Below the pieces are notes generated by a model. That model had not been told where the DNA came from. It was given only the letters and a program-made list of their open reading frames with translations, and did no database searches. Positions 5,153 to 17,705 of a stretch of 64,000 bases of DNA are shown here, in pieces; within the stretch, counting starts at the first letter, position 1, and each line of letters opens with the position of its first letter. Origin of the DNA: Patescibacteria group bacterium (GTDB taxonomy: Bacteria > Patescibacteriota > Patescibacteriia > UBA9570 > JAHJKD01); contig JAZDOC010000019.1 in the NCBI GenBank assembly GCA_043798935.1, forward strand, positions 74,322 to 138,321, given 5' to 3'. Position numbers and translations under genes: made by a program.

Positions 5153-5989
5153 ATGAATAAAACAATAAAAAAAAGTTATAAACTAGGTTTTATATATTTA
5201 GAATCAAAACCATTACTTAAAAAAATTGGTATTATTATTCTATATGCTCTAGCTATTTCAGCCTGGCTGTATTTTTTTATTCAGCTTGGTACATATATCA
5301 TCAATTATAAATCTACCAAAGCAGCTTTAGCCGATATCATGATTGATTATGTCAATTACGATATAATTCCCGCTCCGATTAATTTAAAAATATCCGAAGC
5401 CTATTTATTATCCCGTAATGATGGCAAATACGATTTAATCGCCCAAATTGAAAACCCCAATACTCATTGGATAGCCAATAATTTTGAATATCAATTCAAT
5501 ATAAATGGCTTTACTACCACTACCCAAACTTCTTACTTATTACCTCAAGAAAAAAAGAATTTAACTTTTTTAAATTTAGCCCTAAATAATATTAATACTT
5601 TTGGCCAAAATGAAGCAAGTTTACAAGTAATCTCCGAACCGACTTGGAAAGGTAAAAAACAAGTATATCCGGAATTAATTATCGACTTCACAGATTCATC
5701 ACTTACTAATATCGATCTTGAAGAAAAAACTTATGCACGAGTTACAACCACAGCACAAAATAATAGTCTATATGGTTTTAAAAATATTCAAATATTAGCA
5801 GTTGTAAAAAGCCAAGGCGCACCAGTCGGAATCGCAGTTTCTAACATTACAAATTTTTTATCTAGCGATACTAAGCAATTAGAATTTTCCTGGCCGCGAA
5901 AATTTCCGTTTGATGCCGACTTGAAATTTTTCGCCACCACCGATATACGCAGTGAAAATAATTTAATTGTCAAAAACATTTCCAATTAA
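5153..5989 (+). CDS. hypothetical membrane-anchored extracytoplasmic protein
   Basis: 278-aa ORF. Single N-terminal TM (IGIIILYALAISAWLYFFIQLGTYII). Stop is 3 nt before the SEDS gene. Confidence 0.6.
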   Translation: MNKTIKKSYKLGFIYLESKPLLKKIGIIILYALAISAWLYFFIQLGTYIINYKSTKAALADIMIDYVNYDIIPAPINLKISEAYLLSRNDGKYDLIAQIENPNTHWIANNFEYQFNINGFTTTTQTSYLLPQEKKNLTFLNLALNNINTFGQNEASLQVISEPTWKGKKQVYPELIIDFTDSSLTNIDLEEKTYARVTTTAQNNSLYGFKNIQILAVVKSQGAPVGIAVSNITNFLSSDTKQLEFSWPRKFPFDADLKFFATTDIRSENNLIVKNISN

Positions 5990-5991
5990 AC

Positions 5992-7095
5992 ATGTTAAAA
6001 AAAATATCCTTTTCATTAAGAAATTATGATTGGTGGCTGTTTGCATCGGTAATAATTTTAATTACTATCGGAATACTCATCATTTATTCCGTGGGCATGA
6101 ATTCAGACACATCTGATTTAACTCGCTTTTATAAACAAGTAATCTTCGCCCTAATCGGCCTAATAGCGTTATTTACTGTTAGTTTTATTGATTATCGAAT
6201 ATTTAATAACTATGCTTACTTATTATATATTTTCGGAATTTTATTGCTAATTAGTGTTTTAATATTTGGTACGACTATTCGCGGCACAACTGGATGGTTT
6301 TCGTTTGGATTTATAAGTTTTCAGCCAGTCGAACTGGGAAAAATAATTTTAGTTATAATGCTAGCTAGATTTTTTAGTATCAAGGGTTATGAGATGGATA
6401 AAATCGTCAATATTATTTTCAGCGCATTAATCAGTGGCTCTTATGTTCTATTAGTAATGCGTCAGCCAGATTTAGGTTCTGCGCTAATTTTCATGGCTTT
6501 ATGGGTAGGTTTTTTATTTTTAAGCAACATAAAAAAATCACAATTTCTTATTTTACTTTTAATTTTAGCAGTTCTTGCAACTTGCAGCTGGTTTTTAATT
6601 CTTAAAGATTATCAAAAAGAGCGAATACTAACATTTATTAATCCCAGTCGCGATCCATTGGTGACAGGCTATAATGTTATTCAATCTGTTACAGCGGTTG
6701 GGTCGGGTGGTTTAATTGGACGAGGTTTGGGGCTGGGTCCACAAAGCCAGCTAAACTTTTTACCCGAACAGGAAAATGATTTTATTTTTGCCGTAATTGC
6801 TGAAGAACTCGGCTTTATCGGTAGTGGTTTTGTTATTATTCTATTCTTTTCCATTTTCTATAGAATATGGAAATTATCTAAAATAATCAAAAATGATTTT
6901 ACAGTTTATCTCCTATACGGAATTTTAATTATCTTATGTGTACAAACTACTATCAACATAGGCATGAATATTGGTATTATGCCAGTCACTGGATTGCCTT
7001 TGCCCTTTATTTCATCAGGAGGCAGCTCTCTTGTAGTTAACCTAATTTTAGTAGGTATTATTGAAAATGTTTATCAAAAAAATCACTTGACATAA
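5992..7095 (+). CDS. SEDS-family peptidoglycan glycosyltransferase (FtsW/RodA)
   Basis: 367 aa with about 10 TM helices. SEDS blocks present: GRGLGLGPQSQLNFLPEQENDFIFAVIAEELGFIGS and a C-terminal GMPxTGLPLPFIS. Confidence 0.85.
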   Translation: MLKKISFSLRNYDWWLFASVIILITIGILIIYSVGMNSDTSDLTRFYKQVIFALIGLIALFTVSFIDYRIFNNYAYLLYIFGILLLISVLIFGTTIRGTTGWFSFGFISFQPVELGKIILVIMLARFFSIKGYEMDKIVNIIFSALISGSYVLLVMRQPDLGSALIFMALWVGFLFLSNIKKSQFLILLLILAVLATCSWFLILKDYQKERILTFINPSRDPLVTGYNVIQSVTAVGSGGLIGRGLGLGPQSQLNFLPEQENDFIFAVIAEELGFIGSGFVIILFFSIFYRIWKLSKIIKNDFTVYLLYGILIILCVQTTINIGMNIGIMPVTGLPLPFISSGGSSLVVNLILVGIIENVYQKNHLT

Positions 7096-7146
7096 TCACC
7101 TAAAATAATTTATAATCTACTAAGTTCAATAGTAATCGATTTTTTT

Positions 7147-7521
7147 ATGTCTATACCAAAAAATTTCTCTAAATTAAGCCCTTTTTTACAACAAGAAAGT
7201 TTGCAAAAACTAATCGGTAAATGCCCATTATGTGGTTTCCAATATAAAACAATCAGAGCTAAAGTGATTGAAGAGAATGAAGATGCCCAATTAATATACA
7301 TTAAATGCCAAAAATGCAATGGTTCGATTATCATTTTTGTGGTTAGCAGTGGACCGCTTATAAGTTCGGTTGGATTAATCACAGATTTAAATGAATTCGA
7401 CATTGTATCTTTTAAAAACAAACGCGTCTTAAAAGAAGAAGATATATTAAAACTTCACCAAAATTTACAAACCGGTGAATTTATCAATAGTATTAAAAAT
7501 TATAATATTAACAATAATTAA
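7147..7521 (+). CDS. small zinc-ribbon protein (hypothetical)
   Basis: 124 aa with CPLCG...CQKCNG (CxxC-N29-CxxC). Co-directional with flanking genes. An antisense 103-aa ORF (7110..7421) was rejected. Confidence 0.4.
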   Translation: MSIPKNFSKLSPFLQQESLQKLIGKCPLCGFQYKTIRAKVIEENEDAQLIYIKCQKCNGSIIIFVVSSGPLISSVGLITDLNEFDIVSFKNKRVLKEEDILKLHQNLQTGEFINSIKNYNINNN

Positions 7522-7533
7522 CGAAAATTATTT

Positions 7534-8217
7534 ATGGAAGAAAATCTGCAATTAAAGGCTATTAGTAGGGAGGAAAAGGCCAAACAAAATAAATATGTCC
7601 GTAGCAAAGGTATGGTTCCGTCTCAAGTTTATGGTAAAAATTCTCCTAATGTCATGATTAAAATTGATGCAGTGGCATTTGAAAAAATCTACGCTCAAGC
7701 CAAAGAAAGCACATTAGTTGATTTAATCATCGACGACCAAACACCGATTAAAGTATTAATTCACGATATTTCTCGCGATAGAATATCTGATCATGTTCTT
7801 CATGTTGATTTTTATAAAGTTAACATGACTGAAAAAATAGATGCTGAAATTGATTTAAATTTTCTTGGCATCGCACCAGCCGTTAAAGAACTTGGCGGTA
7901 TTCTTACAAAGCAAATGGATAAAATCGAAATTCGATGCTTTCCAAACGAATTAATCAAAGAAATTGATGTTGATGTAACAACATTAAAAACATTTACTGA
8001 CGTCATTCGAGTAAAAGACATTAAACTTCCTTCAAATATGGAATTAATCAGTGATCCTGAACAAATTGCCATTAATGTGGCTGAACCCAGAAGCGAAGAA
8101 GAATTAAGTGATTTGAACCAAAAAGTTGAAGAAAATGTTTCTAAGGTAGAATCAACGGTTGAAAAGAAAAAGGATGTTGAAGCCGATACCGATACAACAA
8201 AAGACGCTAAAAAATAA
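7534..8217 (+). CDS. rplY: 50S ribosomal protein L25 (Ctc-type, with C-terminal extension)
   Basis: 227 aa. N-terminal L25 fold blocks (LKAISREEKAKQNKYVRSKGMVPSQVYGK ... HDISRDRISDHVLHVDFYKV) and an acidic C-terminal tail. Confidence 0.8.
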   Translation: MEENLQLKAISREEKAKQNKYVRSKGMVPSQVYGKNSPNVMIKIDAVAFEKIYAQAKESTLVDLIIDDQTPIKVLIHDISRDRISDHVLHVDFYKVNMTEKIDAEIDLNFLGIAPAVKELGGILTKQMDKIEIRCFPNELIKEIDVDVTTLKTFTDVIRVKDIKLPSNMELISDPEQIAINVAEPRSEEELSDLNQKVEENVSKVESTVEKKKDVEADTDTTKDAKK

Positions 8218-8233
8218 TTGATTTTAAATTATC

Positions 8234-9349
8234 ATGGAAAAATTAAACGAATTGTTTGTAAAATTTAAAGAAAGCCGCAAAACTCAAATTATTACTGTCG
8301 TGGTTCTATTAATCGTACTGGGTATAGTTGGAATGGTTATTTTTTCTGATGATACCCAAAATTCAAACGATAATAATAATTCAACATCGCAAAAAACAGC
8401 TAATCAATTAGACACTAGCGAAGCATATCGATTAATCGATGGTATTAAAATCACAAAAAATCGCGCAAATTTCTTACCGGTAGCAATTGTAGTTGAAAAT
8501 TATGCCGGCATCCGACCACAGAGCGGTTTAGCTGATGCTAATATTGTTTATGAGGCATTAGCCGAGGGCGGAATCACTAGATTTTTAGCTATTTATGCCA
8601 GCGGTACTGACGTGAAAACAATTGGGCCAGTACGCAGTGCACGTCATTATTTTGTTGATGTTGCCGAAGAATATGGAGGTATTTTTGCTCATATTGGCGG
8701 CAGTCCACAAGCCCTAGGAATATTGTCTTTTGAAGAATATATTACTGATTTAAACCAATTTACTTATTCTCAATATTATTGGCGTGATGATAATATTGCT
8801 GCACCTCATAATTTATTTACTTCTTCAGAATTAATGTCTTATGCAATTAGAGACTTATTATCTGAAAATCCTGAAGGCAATTATACTGCTTGGAAATTTA
8901 AAGATGAAAACGCATCAAGCGTCTCTATTGATAAATACATCAAAATTGATTACAGTCTAGATCAATACGCTGTCGAATGGAAATACAATACCGCTGATAA
9001 TATTTATATGCGTTTTAATGGTGACAAAGAGCATAAAGATGCTTTAACCGATAAACAACTTACCGCAAAAAATATTATTGTTCAATTTGCAGATACCAGC
9101 CTTTTGGAAGGTGAAGCTGAACGCTTAGATATTAAAACAATCGGTGAAGGTGAAGCTTTAATATTTTTGGACGGTGAGGTTATTTCTGGAACTTGGAAAA
9201 AATCCCAACGTGGCGACAGAACTCTTTATTATGATAAAAACAATCAAGAAATTGAATTTAATCGTGGCAACACTTGGGTAGAAATGGTAAAATTAGAAAC
9301 GTCAGTTCAATGGACAGATAATAGTGGAAGCGAACAATCAAAAAATTAA
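8234..9349 (+). CDS. DUF3048-like (YerB family) membrane-anchored protein, tandem paralog 1
   Basis: 371 aa with an N-terminal TM. Conserved core (RANFLPVAIVVENYAGIRPQSGLADANIVYEALAEGGITRFLAIY ... APHNLFTSSELM) is shared with the next gene. Confidence 0.55.
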   Translation: MEKLNELFVKFKESRKTQIITVVVLLIVLGIVGMVIFSDDTQNSNDNNNSTSQKTANQLDTSEAYRLIDGIKITKNRANFLPVAIVVENYAGIRPQSGLADANIVYEALAEGGITRFLAIYASGTDVKTIGPVRSARHYFVDVAEEYGGIFAHIGGSPQALGILSFEEYITDLNQFTYSQYYWRDDNIAAPHNLFTSSELMSYAIRDLLSENPEGNYTAWKFKDENASSVSIDKYIKIDYSLDQYAVEWKYNTADNIYMRFNGDKEHKDALTDKQLTAKNIIVQFADTSLLEGEAERLDIKTIGEGEALIFLDGEVISGTWKKSQRGDRTLYYDKNNQEIEFNRGNTWVEMVKLETSVQWTDNSGSEQSKN

Positions 9350-9373
9350 TGTTTTAATGGGGAGGAATTATTA

Positions 9374-10489
9374 GTGAATATAAAAATTTTTTTATTACGC
9401 ATTGTTAATAATCGAAATTATCAATTAGGAATAATGGCTGTGCTTTTAGTACTCGGTGCTATTTTAGTATGGCTGGGAGTTTTCTATAGTATTAACAATC
9501 AACCTCAAATTCCACAGCCAGAAATAGCCAAAATTAATACCAATACTAATAAGCATATTGTTCCCAAAAAATATTATCGTCTAACAGATGGCGTAGAAAC
9601 TGATAAAAACAAAACTAATCGTTTTCCTTTAGCTGTTATGATAGAAAATTTAGCCAGTAGCGAAGTTCGTCCACAATCTGGCTTAAATGATGCTGAAATT
9701 GTTTATGAAGTTATTGTTGAAGGTGGTATTACCAGATTTTTAGCAATTTATTCATCTGAAACCGAAATAAAAAAAATCGGGCCAGTGCGTAGTGCAAGAA
9801 ACACATTTTTAGAATTTGTTTCCGAATATGACGCTCTATATATACATGCCGGAGGCAGTCCAAACGCACTTCAAGCCATTGATGGTTTAAAAATCAATGA
9901 TTGTTCAGGCTTATCATCTGATGGACGTTTTTATTGGCGTGATCAACAATTTTTTGCACCTCATAATTTATTTACTTCTTCACAATTACTCACATACGCA
10001 TTACGCGATAAAAATTTACTTTCTTTAAACAGCAACTTCACTAGCTGGCAATTCAAAAATGATGAAGATGAAAATTCAAAAATTGAAAATTCAAAATTAA
10101 TCAACAACATTGAAATTGATTTTTCTGAACCTAATTATGCCGTAAAATGGGAATATAATCCTAAAAAAAATAATTATTTACGTTTAAATGGTGGTCAAAA
10201 ACATACTGATGCTCTAACCGGCAAACAACTAACTGCAAAAAATGTTATTATCGAAATTGTACCGCCGGCAACTTCAATTGACGATGAAGGACGCGTTGAT
10301 TTTTCTGTAACCGGCAGTGGTCCAGCTATCATTTTTCAAGATGGTAAAAAAATCAGTGGTACTTGGGAAAAATCATCACGCACTGAACGGACTCTTTATT
10401 TTAATGAATCCCACAAAGAAATTGAATTTAACCGCGGAAAAATTTGGATAGAAATATTACCAGCTGATCGTAGTTATACAACAAGTTAA
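9374..10489 (+). CDS. DUF3048-like (YerB family) membrane-anchored protein, tandem paralog 2
   Basis: 371 aa. GTG start preceded by a strong SD (GGGGAGG at 9358-9364). Same conserved blocks as paralog 1 (NRFPLAVMIENLASSEVRPQSGLNDAEIVYEVIVEGGITRFLAIY ... APHNLFTSSQLL). Confidence 0.55.
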   Translation: MNIKIFLLRIVNNRNYQLGIMAVLLVLGAILVWLGVFYSINNQPQIPQPEIAKINTNTNKHIVPKKYYRLTDGVETDKNKTNRFPLAVMIENLASSEVRPQSGLNDAEIVYEVIVEGGITRFLAIYSSETEIKKIGPVRSARNTFLEFVSEYDALYIHAGGSPNALQAIDGLKINDCSGLSSDGRFYWRDQQFFAPHNLFTSSQLLTYALRDKNLLSLNSNFTSWQFKNDEDENSKIENSKLINNIEIDFSEPNYAVKWEYNPKKNNYLRLNGGQKHTDALTGKQLTAKNVIIEIVPPATSIDDEGRVDFSVTGSGPAIIFQDGKKISGTWEKSSRTERTLYFNESHKEIEFNRGKIWIEILPADRSYTTS

Positions 10490-10501
10490 TGTTTTTTAAT
10501 T

Positions 10502-13500
10502 ATGATTAAATTGAAAATCGATAAAATTTTTCAATTTGTATTGTTTATTGGACTATTTTTCTTTCCTTTAATTATTCAAGCTGAAAATATAAACAATATT
10601 CGAGATAAACTTGTTTACACCGATGGTCAGATTTTAATAAAATTTAAAAATTCCAGAATTCCATTAACCAGTAAAAAAGGATTGGCGCGTTTTAAAACGC
10701 TAATCAAAGTCAATAAACTAAATCCAATTAAATTATTACCAAAAAAAAATATTGCTCTTATTAAATCATTAGATAAAAATACTGAACAATTAATTAATGA
10801 GCTTAAAGATAATTCCAATATTCAATCAGTTCAACCGAACTATATTTACCACATTGAATCTCAAACCTCTCCTTGGGGAATAGGCTCCGATGGCACAAAT
10901 GCCACCTTGGCTAAAAGCACTAATCATGTAAGCGGTGCTGGTATTATTGTTGCCGTAATCGATACGGGTGTGAATTATAATCACGAAGATCTGGATCAAA
11001 ATATGTGGATCCCAGCCACAGGCAAATGTTTAATTAGTAGTGCGCTTATATCGTGTCCAAATCACGGCTGGGATTTCATTGATTCAAGCGATAATGATCC
11101 ATTCGATGATAACGGACATGGCACTCATGTAGCCGGAACCATTGCCGCCGAAGATAATGACCTTGGAGTGATTGGTGTAGCTCCTGATGCCCAAATTATG
11201 GCTCTAAAGGCTTTAGATGAAAACGGCTCGGGCTCGTCATCGGATATTATTGAAAGTATAAATTTCGCAGTTGATAATGGAGCTAATATAATAAATTTAA
11301 GTATTGGTGGTTATGAATACGCTTCTCTGGAAAACCAAGCCATAAGTGATGCTTGGGAAGCCGGTATTACAGTGGTTTCAGCGGCCGGTAACGATTCGGA
11401 AAATATCCCTTCATTTCCGGCAGCTTTTGAAAAATCCATTGCTGTTGGAGCTGTTATCGAAAATCAGACGGATAATAACCCGAGTGAAAACATGGATACT
11501 AAATTAGCCTATTTTTCCAATTATGGTTTTAACGATGTAGTTGCACCCGGACTTAAAATATTAAGCACTTTAAACGACGGAACGTATGGATATTATTCTG
11601 GAACATCCATGGCAACACCGCATATTAGCGGCGTCGTCGCGCTTATTAAGGAAGCTCATCCAAGCTTTACCCCCGATCAAATCAAAACAGTTTTAAAAGC
11701 TACAGCTACAGATTTAGGACAAACAGGCAGTGACCGCTATTTCGGTTCTGGTTTAGCCGATGCTTTATCAGCTACTGCATCTACGATTAGTAACCACATT
11801 ATATTAACCGCTGACTTTTCTGAAATTAATGAAGAAACTGGAGAAACCACTTCAAACACAAGCTCCATAGTAGCTGATGGTTTATCTACAACTAAAATTC
11901 GTGCAATTATTATTGATGAAAATGGAAATTTTGTTAATAATCAAACATTATCATTATCGGTTGATAATGGTTCTCTAAGTGCTTATTCAATTATAACCGA
12001 TGAGATTGGACAAGCTGAATTTACTTATACCTCTTCAACGCAATCTGGCGTAGCTACTGTATGGGTTGATGCCGGATCATACGGAACAAGCAGATTAAAA
12101 ATTACTCTAGCCAATATATTACTCGTATCTGATAGTGTTGAATATTACTATAATAATAATTTTTCCTGGTACTATGAAACCATGCTTAAAAATGCACAAG
12201 TTAAGTACTCACGCTGGGATACGGCTAATGGCGATAATGAAGATTTTCCAACACTCGATTATTTAGAGAAGTTTGATCTGGTAATTTGGTACACCGGCGA
12301 TCATTATATAGAAGAATACCCGCAAAATATTTTAATTTCATATTTAGAAAATAATGGGAAATTACTATTAACCGGTCCGGATCAGCTTTATCAAGGAAAA
12401 GACATAACAACATTGTATACTTTATTAAAGGCTCAATATGCCGGCGATTTTGCTAGCGACTTTTCTGAAATTAATGGAGTAAATCTTTTAGTAAATGAAA
12501 ATTATTTTCTGGGCTTAATTGATGATTATAATTTTTTTCCTGATTATATAAACATTCTTGACAGTGGAGAAGAAATTGCAACTTATAAAAGCGGAGAGAG
12601 TGCCGGTGTAATTTATGATGGCAACTACAAAACAATGTTCTTACCATTTGGAATCGAGTCTATTTATTATAGTGTTGATCGAGATTCTTTATGGTCTAAA
12701 ATATCTGCGTTTTTTATGCCAATTACCGGTTTAGTGTTAAATTCTAATAATCAAAATTCAGTTGAAATAAGCTGGGACCAATATAGTGATCAAGAAGTAT
12801 CAACATATTTAGTCAGCTACGGTACAGATTCTCTGGCCGAAAATCTAGGTGAATTAGAAAGTAATGAAACTTCGATAACTCTAAACAATCTTGAGGCTGA
12901 TACTGCTTATTATGTAAAAGTATCGGCAAATTTAGAAAGCGGAACTAACACTGGATATTCAAGCATTCTAAATTTTACCACTCGGCCGAATGCTCCCACT
13001 AATTTAAAAGTTGATTCCCGCCAAGTTAAAAATATAACTTTAAAATGGACTGCGCCGTCTGATAATATTTCATCGTATATAATCAGTTATGGTACGAATG
13101 TCGGTGCTGATAATATTAAAACCGTTACCTCAACAACCACCAGCAAAAAAATTTCGTCTTTAAAAAGTAATTTGGCATATTATTTTAAAATATCGTCTCT
13201 GCAAGACGAATTTACGACTGATTACAGTATTGTTAAAAAAATTCGAACTCTGCCGGCCAAAGTTAATAGTAAAAAAATTAAAATTAAAAAGAGAGAAACT
13301 AATCAAATAAAAATAAAATGGGAACCAGTAAGAGGCAAAAATTTACAATATGTGATAAGATTAATGACAGCTAAAGGAAAAAAGATTAAAATAATTAGAA
13401 CCACAAAACACACAAAATTAATCACCGGTCTTAAATCCAATAAATCATATAAAATTAAAATTCGAGCCAAGCATAAAACTAGCGGCTTACTAGGTAAATA

Positions 13501-13531
13501 TTCTAAAATAAAAAAAATTAAAACAATATAA
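10502..13531 (+). CDS. secreted S8 subtilisin-like serine protease with three C-terminal fibronectin type III domains
   Basis: 1009 aa with a signal peptide. Catalytic triad blocks in D-H-S order (VAVIDTGV; HGTHVAGTIAA; GTSMATPHISG). Three ~90-aa Fn3-like repeats follow; the last is extremely Lys-rich. Confidence 0.85.
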   Translation: MIKLKIDKIFQFVLFIGLFFFPLIIQAENINNIRDKLVYTDGQILIKFKNSRIPLTSKKGLARFKTLIKVNKLNPIKLLPKKNIALIKSLDKNTEQLINELKDNSNIQSVQPNYIYHIESQTSPWGIGSDGTNATLAKSTNHVSGAGIIVAVIDTGVNYNHEDLDQNMWIPATGKCLISSALISCPNHGWDFIDSSDNDPFDDNGHGTHVAGTIAAEDNDLGVIGVAPDAQIMALKALDENGSGSSSDIIESINFAVDNGANIINLSIGGYEYASLENQAISDAWEAGITVVSAAGNDSENIPSFPAAFEKSIAVGAVIENQTDNNPSENMDTKLAYFSNYGFNDVVAPGLKILSTLNDGTYGYYSGTSMATPHISGVVALIKEAHPSFTPDQIKTVLKATATDLGQTGSDRYFGSGLADALSATASTISNHIILTADFSEINEETGETTSNTSSIVADGLSTTKIRAIIIDENGNFVNNQTLSLSVDNGSLSAYSIITDEIGQAEFTYTSSTQSGVATVWVDAGSYGTSRLKITLANILLVSDSVEYYYNNNFSWYYETMLKNAQVKYSRWDTANGDNEDFPTLDYLEKFDLVIWYTGDHYIEEYPQNILISYLENNGKLLLTGPDQLYQGKDITTLYTLLKAQYAGDFASDFSEINGVNLLVNENYFLGLIDDYNFFPDYINILDSGEEIATYKSGESAGVIYDGNYKTMFLPFGIESIYYSVDRDSLWSKISAFFMPITGLVLNSNNQNSVEISWDQYSDQEVSTYLVSYGTDSLAENLGELESNETSITLNNLEADTAYYVKVSANLESGTNTGYSSILNFTTRPNAPTNLKVDSRQVKNITLKWTAPSDNISSYIISYGTNVGADNIKTVTSTTTSKKISSLKSNLAYYFKISSLQDEFTTDYSIVKKIRTLPAKVNSKKIKIKKRETNQIKIKWEPVRGKNLQYVIRLMTAKGKKIKIIRTTKHTKLITGLKSNKSYKIKIRAKHKTSGLLGKYSKIKKIKTI

Positions 13532-13533
13532 GT

Positions 13534-14454
13534 ATGGCCATAAAAATTATTAAATTCAACAATTTAAGATGGATTAATATCGATAATTTTGATGATGTGG
13601 CGGCAAAATTTTTGAAAAATAATTTTAAATTTCATCATCTGGATATCCAAGATTGTGCCCAAGATAACCCTCATCCTAAAGTTGATATGTATAAAAAATA
13701 TTTATTTGCCGTGTTTAATTTTCCAGAACTCGGCGCCGATAATATACGTATTGATTCTAATGAACTCGATGTTTTCATCGGTGAAAATTTTTTAGTCACG
13801 ATTCAAAAGAAAAAATTCAAATTTTTAAAAACTATATTTTACCGATGTGTCCGGAGCTCTAATATTAAAGAAGAATTTTTCAATTCATCTTCAGGTTTTT
13901 TATTGTATAAAATATTACATAATCTATATGGATCAACCACGGCCATAAATAATTATTTTAGTACGCAAATATCTGAACTGGAAAAAACTATTTATGATAA
14001 ATATCCCGAGAATACCACGGTTACTAAATTAGCCGGCGTGAGGCGAGATATATTAAAAGCCATCAGTATTTTAGAACCGCAACGTTATACCATAAATACT
14101 TTAGTCCATGCTCGCCAAAATTTTCTTCCCGAAGAGTTAAATATATATTTTGATGATGTTCATGATTTAATAGAAAGCGTGTGGATCATTCTAAAAAATT
14201 ATGATGACATTATTTCCGGTTTGCAGACCACGACTGAATCATTAATATCAAATAAAACTAATGAAGTGGTTAAAATTCTAACCACAATTTCTGTAGCTTT
14301 AATGCCTCTTACGCTATTATCAGGAATATACGGTATGAATATCGATTTATTGCCCGGAGCCCATAAACCATTGTTTGTTTGGCTAATTTTTATCGTTTTA
14401 TCAACTATTACTCTTTCTACTTTATTATATTTAAGAAAAAAGAATTGGCTTTGA
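13534..14454 (+). CDS. corA: CorA-family Mg2+/Co2+ transporter
   Basis: 306 aa. Two C-terminal TM helices with the signature YGMN motif (LSGIYGMNIDLLPG). Start is 3 nt after the protease stop. Confidence 0.85.
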   Translation: MAIKIIKFNNLRWINIDNFDDVAAKFLKNNFKFHHLDIQDCAQDNPHPKVDMYKKYLFAVFNFPELGADNIRIDSNELDVFIGENFLVTIQKKKFKFLKTIFYRCVRSSNIKEEFFNSSSGFLLYKILHNLYGSTTAINNYFSTQISELEKTIYDKYPENTTVTKLAGVRRDILKAISILEPQRYTINTLVHARQNFLPEELNIYFDDVHDLIESVWIILKNYDDIISGLQTTTESLISNKTNEVVKILTTISVALMPLTLLSGIYGMNIDLLPGAHKPLFVWLIFIVLSTITLSTLLYLRKKNWL

Positions 14455-14469
14455 TTTTTTTAAATTTTC

Positions 14470-14478
14470 TGCTAAAAT
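14470..14478 (+). promoter_or_regulatory. extended -10 element TG-c-TAAAAT upstream of the lipoprotein gene
   Basis: tTGcTAAAAT at 14469-14478, 34 nt upstream of the ATG at 14512. It is the same TGCTAWAAT word as at 4212, 5138 and 27288. Confidence 0.3.
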
Positions 14479-14511
14479 ATAACAAGTCTAATAAATAATA
14501 TTAATACAATT

Positions 14512-15057
14512 ATGTTCAAAAAAGCTCTATTTTTAACACTAATCATGGTTTTCGTGTTTGTATTGTCGGGTTGTGATTTCAACTCATCTAATGCCAACAA
14601 TAATGAAAACTCCAATAAAACCGCTGTATCTTCTCAGGATGAAGATATAATTGATGATACTGACATCGAAACCGAGGAGCTAACAGCTATGCCCACTGAA
14701 GATGTTTATGGTGAAGATATGACTAGCATTGATCGTTATCCTGAATCAAAAAGAACATATTATGTAAAAGATGATTATGAAACAGATATAACATATATAA
14801 CTTCAGATTCAGAAACAAAAGTGCGAGATTATTTCTTAGATTTACTTAAAAAAGATAGTTGGGAAAATACCGGAGTAGCCACAGATTATTTAGATTTTGA
14901 AAAAGGTGATACTGATAATCCGGAAATGCTAACCATTTATTTTACCCCTTATGAAAACAGCGATTTATTAGAATATGAAATGGTTTATTCACCACCTTTA
15001 ACCGAAGAAGAATTAGCTGATCTTAATGATGAAGATATTGTAGATACTGAAGAATAA
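14512..15057 (+). CDS. acidic lipoprotein (hypothetical)
   Basis: 181 aa. Signal peptide with lipobox (VFVLSGC). The mature part is very D/E-rich. Confidence 0.6.
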   Translation: MFKKALFLTLIMVFVFVLSGCDFNSSNANNNENSNKTAVSSQDEDIIDDTDIETEELTAMPTEDVYGEDMTSIDRYPESKRTYYVKDDYETDITYITSDSETKVRDYFLDLLKKDSWENTGVATDYLDFEKGDTDNPEMLTIYFTPYENSDLLEYEMVYSPPLTEEELADLNDEDIVDTEE

Positions 15058-15065
15058 TATTTAAA

Positions 15066-16217
15066 ATGCGAGAAAAAAGTAATATTCTAGGCGCAGTAGC
15101 AATATTAGTAGGCACTTGTATCGGTGCGGGTATTTTTGGCTTGCCATATGTTATTAGCAAAGTCGGTATCGGTATCGGTGCTGTTTACATGTTTATTATG
15201 GGTATAATTGTAATGTTTACAACTTTAGCTTATGGCGAAGTTGTACTACGTACTAAAGGCACTCATCAATTTCCGCAATATGTAAATATTTATCTTGGTC
15301 CACGTTGGAAGCAAGTAGCTGTAATTTCAATTTTTACGGGTTTTTATGGAGCGTTAATCGCATATTTAACCGAATGCGGTATTTTTCTGCACTCGATATT
15401 TAACCCTTACTTTGGCGGTAATCTGTTAATCTATCAAATGATTTATTTTTTGATTGTTACAATTGCAGTTTGGTTCGGTTTAGGTATCATTGAAAAAATG
15501 GAAAAAGTAATGTTCTTTGCAATAATCATTATTATTTTGTTATTAGTATTTTTTGGAGCACATTACATAGAAATTGATAATTTGCAAACCGTGAATTTCT
15601 CCCAAATATTGATTCCATACGGAGTAATATTATTCGCTTTTACTGCTGCGTCAGCCGTTCCTAACATGAAAGACGTTTTATTAAAAAACAAAAAAGATCT
15701 AAAAAAAAGTATCATTATTGGTTCGTTAATTCCTCTTGTTATATATTTAATTTTCACCATTTTCGTTGTTGGCATTTCCGGATCCAATACGTCGGAAAGT
15801 GCTATTTCTGGTTTAGAGCCATATTTAGGATCATCCATTACATTAGTTGGTGCCATCTTTGGAATTCTTACCATGACAACATCCTTTTTAGCGCTAGGTT
15901 TAGTTTTAAAAGATGTCTATGTTTATGATTTTAAATTAAATAAAACTTTAGCATGTATTTTAGTACTATTGCCGGTACTAATAATTGTAATGGGGAAATT
16001 TTTAACTTTTATTGAAATTATCGGTATATCCGGAGCACTAATTGGCGGGATAAATGGTATTATTATGGTCCACATGTTTAATCGAGCCAAAACCATGAGT
16101 CAAAAAAAACCAGAATATACTATAAATATTCCAGGTTTTTTTATTTATATTATGTATTTAGTGTTTATTGGCGGTATGATTTATGAAATCTATACGGTTC
16201 TAAATAAGTATTTATAG
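15066..16217 (+). CDS. amino-acid permease (APC superfamily, Trp/Tyr-permease-like)
   Basis: 383 aa with about 11 TM helices. N-terminal GxGIFGLPY block typical of aromatic/hydroxy amino acid permeases. Confidence 0.55.
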   Translation: MREKSNILGAVAILVGTCIGAGIFGLPYVISKVGIGIGAVYMFIMGIIVMFTTLAYGEVVLRTKGTHQFPQYVNIYLGPRWKQVAVISIFTGFYGALIAYLTECGIFLHSIFNPYFGGNLLIYQMIYFLIVTIAVWFGLGIIEKMEKVMFFAIIIIILLLVFFGAHYIEIDNLQTVNFSQILIPYGVILFAFTAASAVPNMKDVLLKNKKDLKKSIIIGSLIPLVIYLIFTIFVVGISGSNTSESAISGLEPYLGSSITLVGAIFGILTMTTSFLALGLVLKDVYVYDFKLNKTLACILVLLPVLIIVMGKFLTFIEIIGISGALIGGINGIIMVHMFNRAKTMSQKKPEYTINIPGFFIYIMYLVFIGGMIYEIYTVLNKYL

Positions 16218-16220
16218 TTT

Positions 16221-17705
16221 ATGCATTTATCTGATTACCAAAAGTATCGCATTTTAGAAATTTTACCGGGTTTTACAGTGTGGTTTACGCTGATTGCAGT
16301 TTTTGTTTTGTCATTTATTGAACCATTACTCATGATTTATTTTATTATTGCTTTTGATCTGTATTGGTTGATGCGAGTTTTTTATTTTATTTCTTATTTG
16401 GGTTATTCATGGTATCGCTATCGCAAGGAAGATAAAATAAATTGGTTAAATAAAGTTAAGACTATAAATAACTGGGAAAACATTTATCATTTAATTTTTT
16501 TACCAACATATGGTGATGATGTAAGTATTTTGGAAACAACCTTTGCAGCCTTAGTTAAAAGTGATTATCCATTACAGAAATTTATTATTATTTTAGCCGG
16601 TGAAGAACGCGAAGGCCAAGCTTTCAATAATCGCGCTAAAAAAATTCAGGAAAAATACAGTTCATATTTTTATAAGTTCATAATTACAATCCACCCTAAA
16701 AATCAATTTGGCGAAGTTGCTGGCAAAGGATCAAATATTAATTATGCCGGTCATTTAGCACAAAATTATATTGATAGTTTAAAAATAAAATATGAAAATG
16801 TTATAGTATCCGCATTTGATATCGACACTTGTGTCAGCCGACAATATTTTAGTTATTTAACTTACAAATATTTAACTCACCCAAACCCCACTCATGCCAG
16901 TTATCAACCGCTGGCTTTATACAACAATAATGTTTGGGAATCACCTTCATTTACAAGAGTAGTTGCAAACTCAACAACTTTTTGGTTAATGACCGATCTT
17001 GCTCGACCCGAACGTTTATTTACTTTTTCTTCCCATAGCATGAGCTTTAAAACATTAGTTGATGTTGGTTTTTGGCAGAACGATATCGTAACCGAAGATT
17101 CCAGAATATTTTTACAATGTTTTATCCATTATGACGGTGATTATCAAACCGTGCCCATGTTTGTAACCGTTTCAATGGATACAGCCTATAGCGGTGATTT
17201 ATGGGGTACAATAAAAAATCAATACAAACAAATTCGACGCTGGGCGTGGGGAGTGGAGCATTTTCCGTTTATGTTCTGGCATTTTATTAAAGCCAAAAAA
17301 ATACCGTGGTCTAAAAAAATGAAATACATGTTTAATTTAACTGAAGGAATGTATTCGTGGGCGACTGCACCACTTTTAATTTTAATTCTAGGTCGATTGC
17401 CTTTATGGGTTTCAGCTCAGCAAGAAAAATCCGGCATCATTACGCAAACAGCGCCTCACATATTACAATGGTTAATGACAGCTGCTATGCTAGGAATTTT
17501 AGCATCGGCTATTATGAATGTTTACTTTCTTCCTAAACCGCCAAAAAAATATAAAAGCTATAAAATTTTAATCATGCTTTTACAATGGATATTACTACCA
17601 ATCACTATAATTATTTTTGGTTCCATACCAGCGATTGATGCTCAAACACGCCTTATGTTAGGCAAATATTTAGGCTTTTATACTACTAAAAAACTTAGGA
17701 AGTGA
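16221..17705 (+). CDS. processive family-2 glycosyltransferase (cellulose/chitin-synthase-like beta-glycan synthase)
   Basis: 494 aa. N- and C-terminal TM bundles flank a GT2 domain carrying DxD (FDIDT), TED (VTEDSRIF) and Q(I)RRW (QIRRWAWG) motifs. Confidence 0.7.
   Translation: MHLSDYQKYRILEILPGFTVWFTLIAVFVLSFIEPLLMIYFIIAFDLYWLMRVFYFISYLGYSWYRYRKEDKINWLNKVKTINNWENIYHLIFLPTYGDDVSILETTFAALVKSDYPLQKFIIILAGEEREGQAFNNRAKKIQEKYSSYFYKFIITIHPKNQFGEVAGKGSNINYAGHLAQNYIDSLKIKYENVIVSAFDIDTCVSRQYFSYLTYKYLTHPNPTHASYQPLALYNNNVWESPSFTRVVANSTTFWLMTDLARPERLFTFSSHSMSFKTLVDVGFWQNDIVTEDSRIFLQCFIHYDGDYQTVPMFVTVSMDTAYSGDLWGTIKNQYKQIRRWAWGVEHFPFMFWHFIKAKKIPWSKKMKYMFNLTEGMYSWATAPLLILILGRLPLWVSAQQEKSGIITQTAPHILQWLMTAAMLGILASAIMNVYFLPKPPKKYKSYKILIMLLQWILLPITIIIFGSIPAIDAQTRLMLGKYLGFYTTKKLRK

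Follow-up and report, generated by a model that had tools for sequence, protein, structure and literature searches.

A tandem pair of YerB-family DUF3048 paralogs in a Kerfeldbacteria-like Patescibacteria genome, probably an old duplication with an envelope role

Here we describe a locus at positions 8234-14454 of a 64-kb stretch of a Patescibacteria metagenome-assembled genome (MAG); the whole stretch is referred to as the window. The locus carries two tandem genes for DUF3048 proteins, copies A and B, followed by genes for a secreted S8 subtilase and a CorA-like channel. We favor, with a probability of about 0.6, the reading that A and B are an ancient pair of YerB-family paralogs with a housekeeping role in the cell envelope, expressed from a promoter that lies upstream, with the S8 protease as an accessory and the CorA-like channel as a passenger. 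Every component belongs to a described family, and the locus is an ordinary one that holds no surprise for a specialist. What is new is the division of DUF3048 into A and B types in Kerfeldbacteria-like genomes, the linkage of the pair to rplY behind a conserved promoter, a lone Shine-Dalgarno (SD) sequence before copy B, and the domain make-up of the S8 protease.

For comparison we used 80 species-representative DUF3048 loci and 11 loci from closer relatives, with L-numbers designating loci; neighbor counts in the 80 representative loci come from a phmmer survey of their open reading frames (ORFs). Nearly all relatives of the window are candidate-phyla-radiation genomes, and the window's own group is Kerfeldbacteria-like. 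A protein identical to copy A, P0001, is recorded for a Patescibacteria MAG at NCBI.

Both copies are membrane-anchored members of the YerB family

The gene for copy A occupies 8234-9349 and the gene for copy B, which starts with GTG, 9374-10489. The protease gene (10502-13531) and the corA gene (13534-14454) follow, all four on the forward strand. An earlier sequence-only reading of this DNA had placed these ORFs exactly, and the spacers that it gave between A and B (24 nt) and between B and S8 (12 nt) agree with ours, whereas the spacer between S8 and corA is 2 nt rather than 3 nt. The same reading described the two 371-aa products as membrane-anchored, DUF3048-like paralogs. A Pfam scan matched the N- and C-domains of the family in both proteins, in each case more than 80 bits above a cut-off of 25: the N-terminal domain (PF11258) scored 143.9 bits in A (E 5e-42) and 145.4 bits in B (E 2e-42), and DUF3048_C (PF17479) scored 106.6 bits (E 1e-30) and 105.8 bits (E 2e-30), respectively. 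Aligned over 353 aa, the two proteins are 44% identical with 65% positives (E 4e-101), and both begin with a hydrophobic segment, so that paralogy and membrane anchoring are borne out. Lysine and arginine residues precede the hydrophobic segment in both copies, which by the positive-inside rule predicts that the N-terminus lies inside and the body outside. Each protein would thus have one N-terminal transmembrane anchor, a low-complexity linker and a two-domain body exposed on the outside, copy B having the same architecture as copy A.

By sequence, Bacillus subtilis YerB (2PSB) is the sole relative in the PDB (phmmer E 5e-36, residues 67-352). The AlphaFold2 (AF2) model of copy A, with a mean predicted local distance difference test (pLDDT) score of 90.9, starts with an N-terminal helix (residues 2-38), is disordered over residues 41-57 and then forms a globular body of two domains. 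A Foldseek search of the PDB with this model returned 2PSB (E 1e-25, target-normalized TM-score 0.89, root-mean-square deviation 2.3 Å, 32% identity) and, apart from 2PSB, no match below E 0.05. Since YerB alone was recovered, fold comparison offers no functional analogy, and judged from the model DUF3048 appears to be an orphan fold among solved structures. YerB has been described as a lipoprotein with no assigned function (PMC13068155, PMC3416734), and in the published literature on DUF3048 and yerB we found no function. The window proteins resemble YerB, a structural-genomics target (SR586), in having the same two domains and the same fold and in being exported envelope proteins. They differ from it in having a predicted uncleaved N-terminal transmembrane helix and no lipobox, and the window locus differs in having two diverged tandem paralogs behind rplY.

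The family is large. A profile search against 1.84 billion representatives recovered 10,108 DUF3048 clusters (50% identity) at E ≤0.001, 3,513 of them at E ≤1e-30. The family occurs in the single-membrane lineages Patescibacteria, Bacillota and Chloroflexota. Actinomycetota also carry DUF3048. In an alignment of 35 DUF3048 sequences including A and B, 40 columns are invariant, and a larger set of 103 sequences has 25 columns with at least 95% conservation; invariant residues include N89, E107, E111, R116, R134, S135, R137, H153, R184 and H192. In an unrelated protein, P0241 (1022 aa), a signal peptide and a type I dockerin are combined with two full DUF3048 N+C modules, one after the other; the module has thus been doubled independently in an extracellular protein of the cellulosome style.

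The duplication appears to be old

The sequence-only reading proposed phylogeny as a way to date the duplication. In a neighbor-joining (NJ) tree of 103 DUF3048 sequences, the copies in the first position form one clade and the copies in the second position another, and the A/B split has a bootstrap of 96/100 for the window and its five nearest genomes. Mean identity is 40% between A and B within a genome, compared with 45.5% among A orthologs and 42.3% among B orthologs. Because the copies fall into separate clades and A-B identity is close to ortholog identity, the A and B clades appear to be ancient, and the duplication may be roughly as old as the Kerfeldbacteria-like group that carries the pair (about 18 genomes). 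Copy A is more conserved than copy B in 123 of 153 genome pairs. Among conserved columns, 49 hold the same residue in the A and B clades and one holds a different residue; with the conserved family residues kept in both, neither copy appears degenerate.

A recent tandem duplication, or gene conversion still under way, would make one copy redundant, and we regard this as hardly credible. Two observations speak for it: both proteins are exactly 371 aa long, and a 27-mer occurs as exact copies at 8801 and 9956 and nowhere else, with none found in 100 shuffles. This repeat would be the trace of such an event, and the sequence-only reading gave it as an example of stretches of near-identical DNA. 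The exact 27-mer is indeed in both genes, but there is a single such stretch rather than several: the run of 27-28 nt sits inside one 70-nt block of 81% A/B identity, and the codon-aligned DNA identity of A and B is 58% overall, which together with 44% protein identity argues against a recent event. Moreover, the run encodes the conserved family motif APHNLFTSS in preferred codons. Identical A/B residues share a codon 58% of the time; at that rate nine consecutive ones do so with a probability of about 0.007 for each run of nine, which is not compelling. The APHNLFTSS codons of A and B show two synonymous differences in L081 and more in other relatives, and A and B are separate orthologous clades. 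We therefore ruled out gene conversion as the source of the 27-nt run on the basis of the conserved motif, the codon sharing and the relatives.

Copy B is preceded by the only strong Shine-Dalgarno sequence in the window

The genome of the window hardly uses SD motifs. Across the 58 ORF starts of the window, an SD core of at least 5 nt is present at one, that of copy B; two starts have 4-mers and 55 have none. The core is part of GGGGAGG at 9359-9365 on the forward strand, 8 nt 5' of the GTG start. The statement of the sequence-only reading that copy B has one of the few strong SD sequences was thus an understatement. In three relatives (L081, L084 and L086) an SD-like motif is also found at the A-B junction, and there B is alone among 17-18 genes in having one. 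In L085 and L087 the SD motif at this junction overlaps the called ATG.

The conserved linkage of the pair lies upstream

The deepest conserved linkage of the locus is on its upstream side, where a Zn-ribbon gene and the L25 gene precede DUF3048. In the window, the Zn-ribbon gene (7147-7521, forward strand) encodes a 124-aa protein with the motif CPLCG...CQKCNG and no Pfam match. The next gene (7534-8217, forward strand) encodes ribosomal protein bL25/Ctc (rplY), identified by Pfam Ribosomal_L25p and TL5_C matches and by TIGR00731 at 122 bits against a cut-off of 73. Of the 80 representative loci, 42 have L25 immediately before DUF3048 and 37 have RodA further upstream; Zn-ribbon homologs precede L25 in many Patescibacteria relatives. 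The SEDS-family RodA/FtsW protein of the window is encoded at 5992-7095 on the forward strand, its FTSW_RODA_SPOVE assignment being taken from relatives.

A sigma-70 consensus promoter (TTGACA-18-TATAAT) was found by sequence scan at 7087-7116 on the forward strand, with its -35 box overlapping the last two codons of RodA. This is the sole 12/12 match to the consensus on either strand of the window. At the same RodA/Zn-ribbon junction, L081, L084, L085 and L086 have a 12/12 match and L087, L005, L007, L009 and L014 an 11/12 match. The -35 and -10 boxes are kept in these relatives and the sequence between them varies, as expected of a working promoter. In L090, unrelated genes for HAD, SerA and SerC are inserted after RodA and the Zn-ribbon-L25-A-B block is intact; RodA is thus separable from the block, in keeping with a unit beginning at this promoter. 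The transcription unit probably opens with the Zn-ribbon gene.

Downstream of this promoter the genes are tightly packed. The gaps from L25 through the GT2 glycosyltransferase gene are 16, 24, 12, 2, 57, 8 and 3 nt, and genes for a lipoprotein, an aromatic amino-acid permease and a GT2 glycosyltransferase (14512-17705, forward strand) continue the co-directional run beyond corA. A terminator scan of the forward strand from 7116 to 17705 found no strong terminator, only weak candidates inside ORFs, and Rfam and tRNA scans gave no hit anywhere in the window, with no riboswitch or leader. These features point to a single predicted transcript from about 7120 to 17705, Zn-ribbon through GT2. The lipoprotein, permease and GT2 genes occur in the same order in L001, L081, L084, L086-L088, L090 and L091. 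Of the single operon proposed earlier for A, B, S8 and corA, the tight co-directional packing and the lack of a convincing internal terminator stand, whereas the idea of a self-contained unit for proteolysis or adhesion does not. Its bounds also fail, because the promoter lies further upstream at 7087-7116 and corA is followed by no terminator and by same-strand genes to 17705.

The lipoprotein (14512-15057, 181 aa) is acidic and has the lipobox LSGC. Its relatives match Pfam AF_1845, a family that a Pfam scan did not detect in the window lipoprotein.

The S8 protease is probably an accessory gene and CorA a passenger

The sequence-only reading took A, B, S8 and CorA as one operon for proteolysis or adhesion at the cell surface. 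In a dedicated operon of this kind, the DUF3048 proteins would serve the protease as anchors, chaperones or maturation factors, or would inhibit it. Short spacers of 24, 12 and 2 nt on one strand, and the fact that all products are exported or membrane-bound, are in line with this proposal. The two paralogs are also adjacent in relatives, as it expected, with the tandem pair present in 14 of the 80 representative loci (about 66 are single-copy) and in closer relatives. Conservation of the neighborhood with S8 gave a divided answer. S8 follows the pair, directly or past one gene, in seven related lineages (the window, L081, L084, L087, L088, L090 and L091) in which the S8 proteins are 35-46% identical, but no S8 homolog was found within 10 kb of DUF3048 in any of the 80 representative loci, either the 14 with a pair or the roughly 66 with a single copy.

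The arrangement behind the pair varies among the closer relatives. In the window A-B is followed by S8, CorA and the lipoprotein, and in L081 by S8 and the lipoprotein. In the other five S8-bearing lineages (L084, L087, L088, L090 and L091), a gene for a membrane protein of about 300 aa comes between B and S8, and the lipoprotein follows. Three further loci of this clade have A-B but lack S8: L086 has the membrane protein and the lipoprotein, L085 the membrane protein and CorA without the lipoprotein, and L001 the lipoprotein only. In addition, L089 has an S8 homolog of the same architecture without DUF3048, located between guaA and an ATPase gene. CorA follows the pair in only two lineages, the window and L085, and the one CorA homolog among the 80 representative loci is distant and on the opposite strand. 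CorA is thus a sporadic passenger. Finally, DUF3048, with about 10,000 clusters at 50% identity, is far more widely spread than this protease. A dedicated operon is therefore, in our view, improbable.

In a tree of concatenated A and B, the S8-bearing genomes group with L086, L085 and L001. Because the group includes these S8-less loci, one gain and several losses are suggested, that is, S8 may have been inserted once in one family-level clade and then lost several times. We conclude that the pair functions without the protease, that corA is incidental, and that the unit is longer and differently anchored than was proposed before.

The membrane protein of about 300 aa found after B has an N-terminal transmembrane segment, a helical outer domain and a C-terminal part with several transmembrane segments, and belongs to no Pfam family. 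It is encoded at 12290-13195 in L084, 7626-8525 in L086, 12236-13159 in L085, 7009-7992 in L087, 7027-8004 in L088 and 5834-6841 in L006; unannotated genes of similar size in the same slot of L090 (7031-7987) and L091 (4110-5006) are candidates for it. No trace of this gene was found in the window, from which it is lost.

What the pair may do

In the reading that we prefer, A and B would be anciently separated paralogs that were both retained and that face outward. They would most likely be transcribed from the promoter at 7087-7116 together with the Zn-ribbon and L25 genes, on a transcript that probably runs on through the S8, corA, lipoprotein, amino-acid permease and GT2 genes. The two proteins probably work together, perhaps as a hetero-oligomer made in matched amounts, in the envelope housekeeping of a single-membrane cell. 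Such joint action is suggested by the retention of both copies, by the conservation of the SD sequence before B in the closest relatives, and by the two-module chain of P0241. A more far-reaching version holds that A and B depend on each other as an obligate hetero-oligomer outside the membrane, with SD-matched amounts, and are a novel envelope-biogenesis enzyme or receptor of monoderms with an orphan fold and a conserved pocket of Arg, Glu, His and Ser residues, split into two specialized subunits in Kerfeldbacteria-like lineages; we consider it rather doubtful.

The recurrence of RodA upstream raises the alternative that the pair is a cell-wall synthesis factor that cooperates with this SEDS polymerase and might, for instance, bind or process lipid II or newly made peptidoglycan outside the membrane. 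The order hyp278-RodA-(Zn ribbon)-L25-DUF3048, in which hyp278 is a hypothetical protein, is kept in 37-42 of the 80 loci and in several candidate phyla. An outward-facing body with many invariant Arg, Glu, His and Ser residues would suit such a role, as would the family's occurrence in single-membrane Patescibacteria, Bacillota and Chloroflexota. However, the stretch from RodA to DUF3048 contains the gene of a ribosomal protein as well as a conserved promoter, and the three-gene insertion of L090 falls after RodA and leaves Zn-ribbon-L25-A-B together. In the Microgenomates-type loci the neighbors are DUF4446-like, winged-helix and SecDF genes, and the presence of this SecDF-linked block, not wall genes, in loci without L25 weakens the connection to RodA. 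In addition, the fold has no similarity to known wall enzymes. We consider a wall factor of this kind unlikely.

Several points weigh against the ancient housekeeping pair that we favor. The bootstrap for the A/B split falls to 52/100 when all 18 pairs are taken together, in trees built by simple neighbor joining. We infer that A and B act jointly, and deduce the promoter and read-through from sequence and comparison only. The neighborhoods give no consistent hint at function, with RodA and L25 in Parcubacteria-type loci and SecDF in Microgenomates-type loci. The nine-genome clade behind a single gain of S8 has a support of 51/200, so that the count of gains and losses is uncertain. Lastly, S8 still lies beside the pair at 35-46% S8 identity, longer than chance adjacency suggests, and a genuine functional tie within this clade may exist.

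The locus yields three constraints on the function of DUF3048. First, that DUF3048 is found in core housekeeping rows of Patescibacteria with reduced genomes speaks for a basic role in the envelope. Second, two diverged copies long kept in one clade, with signs of coupled translation, argue for a two-subunit unit. Third, the adjoining S8 protease is dispensable for the pair. One outside lead, and no more than a lead, is Mycobacterium tuberculosis Rv3835, a putative DUF3048 protein. According to a review (PMC3989709), transcription profiling (Slayden et al. 2006) flagged Rv3835 as division-related, which would favor the wall-factor alternative. Published work describes Rv3835 as secreted and O-mannosylated.

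Domains of the S8 protease and the CorA-like protein

The S8 gene (10502-13531, forward strand) was described in the sequence-only reading as encoding a 1009-aa secreted subtilase with three Fn3 domains, and the length, a Peptidase_S8 match, a signal peptide and three fn3 stretches were all found. Beyond that description, the protein also has a prodomain, a Big_1 domain and a domain resembling glutamine amidotransferases (GATase-like). Its order is signal peptide (MIKLKIDKIFQFVLFIGLFFFPLIIQA), prodomain, catalytic domain, Big_1, GATase-like domain and three Fn3 domains. The prodomain is of the Fervidolysin type (PF22148, 23.2 bits against a cut-off of 21), and Peptidase_S8 scores 212 bits against a cut-off of 21.8. 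The catalytic residues are D154 (VIDTG), H206 (HGTHV) and S369 (GTSMA), with N265 in the oxyanion position.

The GATase-like domain of about 200 aa gave no significant Pfam match, the best being GLMA_2nd (E 0.011, below the cut-off). Residues 536-738 (12107-12715) are modeled with confidence (pLDDT 89.8) as a fold of the class-I glutamine amidotransferase, ThuA and IFT52 N-terminal kind, with matches to 7vkx (1e-7), 1o1y, 5fmr and 1t0b. The fold also matches part of eukaryotic site-1 protease (9csd, 8uw8). Its invariant residues include no Cys or His, and the domain is therefore probably not catalytic. The last Fn3 domain (residues 916-1009; 13247-13528) has a pI of 11.2, with 31 lysines and arginines in 94 residues, and it is basic in nine S8 homologs too (pI 10.3-11.5). 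The protein has no LPXTG motif and no C-terminal transmembrane anchor, and the lysine-rich last domain suggests electrostatic retention on an anionic surface. The S8 protein is probably an active exported enzyme held at such a surface by its last Fn3 domain, and could plausibly serve in peptide and amino-acid scavenging or in attack on a host surface.

Like described subtilases with a Fervidolysin prodomain and Ig-like or Fn3 modules, the window protein has the D-H-S triad, the prodomain, a signal peptide, and Big_1 and Fn3 domains. It is unlike them in the GATase/ThuA-like domain between Big_1 and Fn3 and in the terminal Fn3 domain with a pI of about 11. Full-length relatives of the same architecture make up about 25 clusters at 31-46% identity, and the named ones are Patescibacteria or Kerfeldbacteria. 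NCBIfam matches of S8 to mycosin and to the anti-phage protein IteS were far below their cut-offs, and a broad literature search for Patescibacteria and subtilisin returned nothing relevant. With Big_1, GATase-like and Fn3 modules and a polycationic tail added to an S8 catalytic domain, the protein is a candidate surface or nutrient-scavenging factor of probably host-dependent bacteria.

The corA gene (13534-14454, forward strand) encodes a CorA-like divalent-cation channel of 306 aa, and the name given to it in the sequence-only reading is supported by a full-length Pfam match (PF01544, 184.9 bits, E 3e-54, cut-off 27). As in CorA Mg2+/Co2+ channels, a YGMN motif (residues 266-269) stands before the last helix. 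Unlike the CorA equivalogs, the protein scores 163.3 bits with TIGR00383, below the cut-off of 200.75; specificity for Mg2+/Co2+ is thus not established by this score, and we file the protein as CorA-like. With a spacer of 2 nt behind S8 and the empty Rfam scan, no riboswitch or leader is possible for corA.

Other neighbors and related loci

The 278-aa membrane-anchored hypothetical protein hyp278 (5153-5989, forward strand) adjoins RodA on its upstream side. It matches no family, is encoded directly upstream of RodA in most Parcubacteria-type loci, and could be a RodA partner.

A Microgenomates-type block is found in 14-15 loci (L053, L061, L070 and others) and consists of DUF4446-like, single-copy DUF3048, winged-helix, SecD and SecF genes. 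Several MAGs whose records are titled "uncultured Gammaproteobacteria" (L002, L008, L015, L018, L020 and other binchicken/TPA_asm records) have the Patescibacteria order hyp278-RodA-L25-DUF3048, and these record titles look like taxonomic mislabels.

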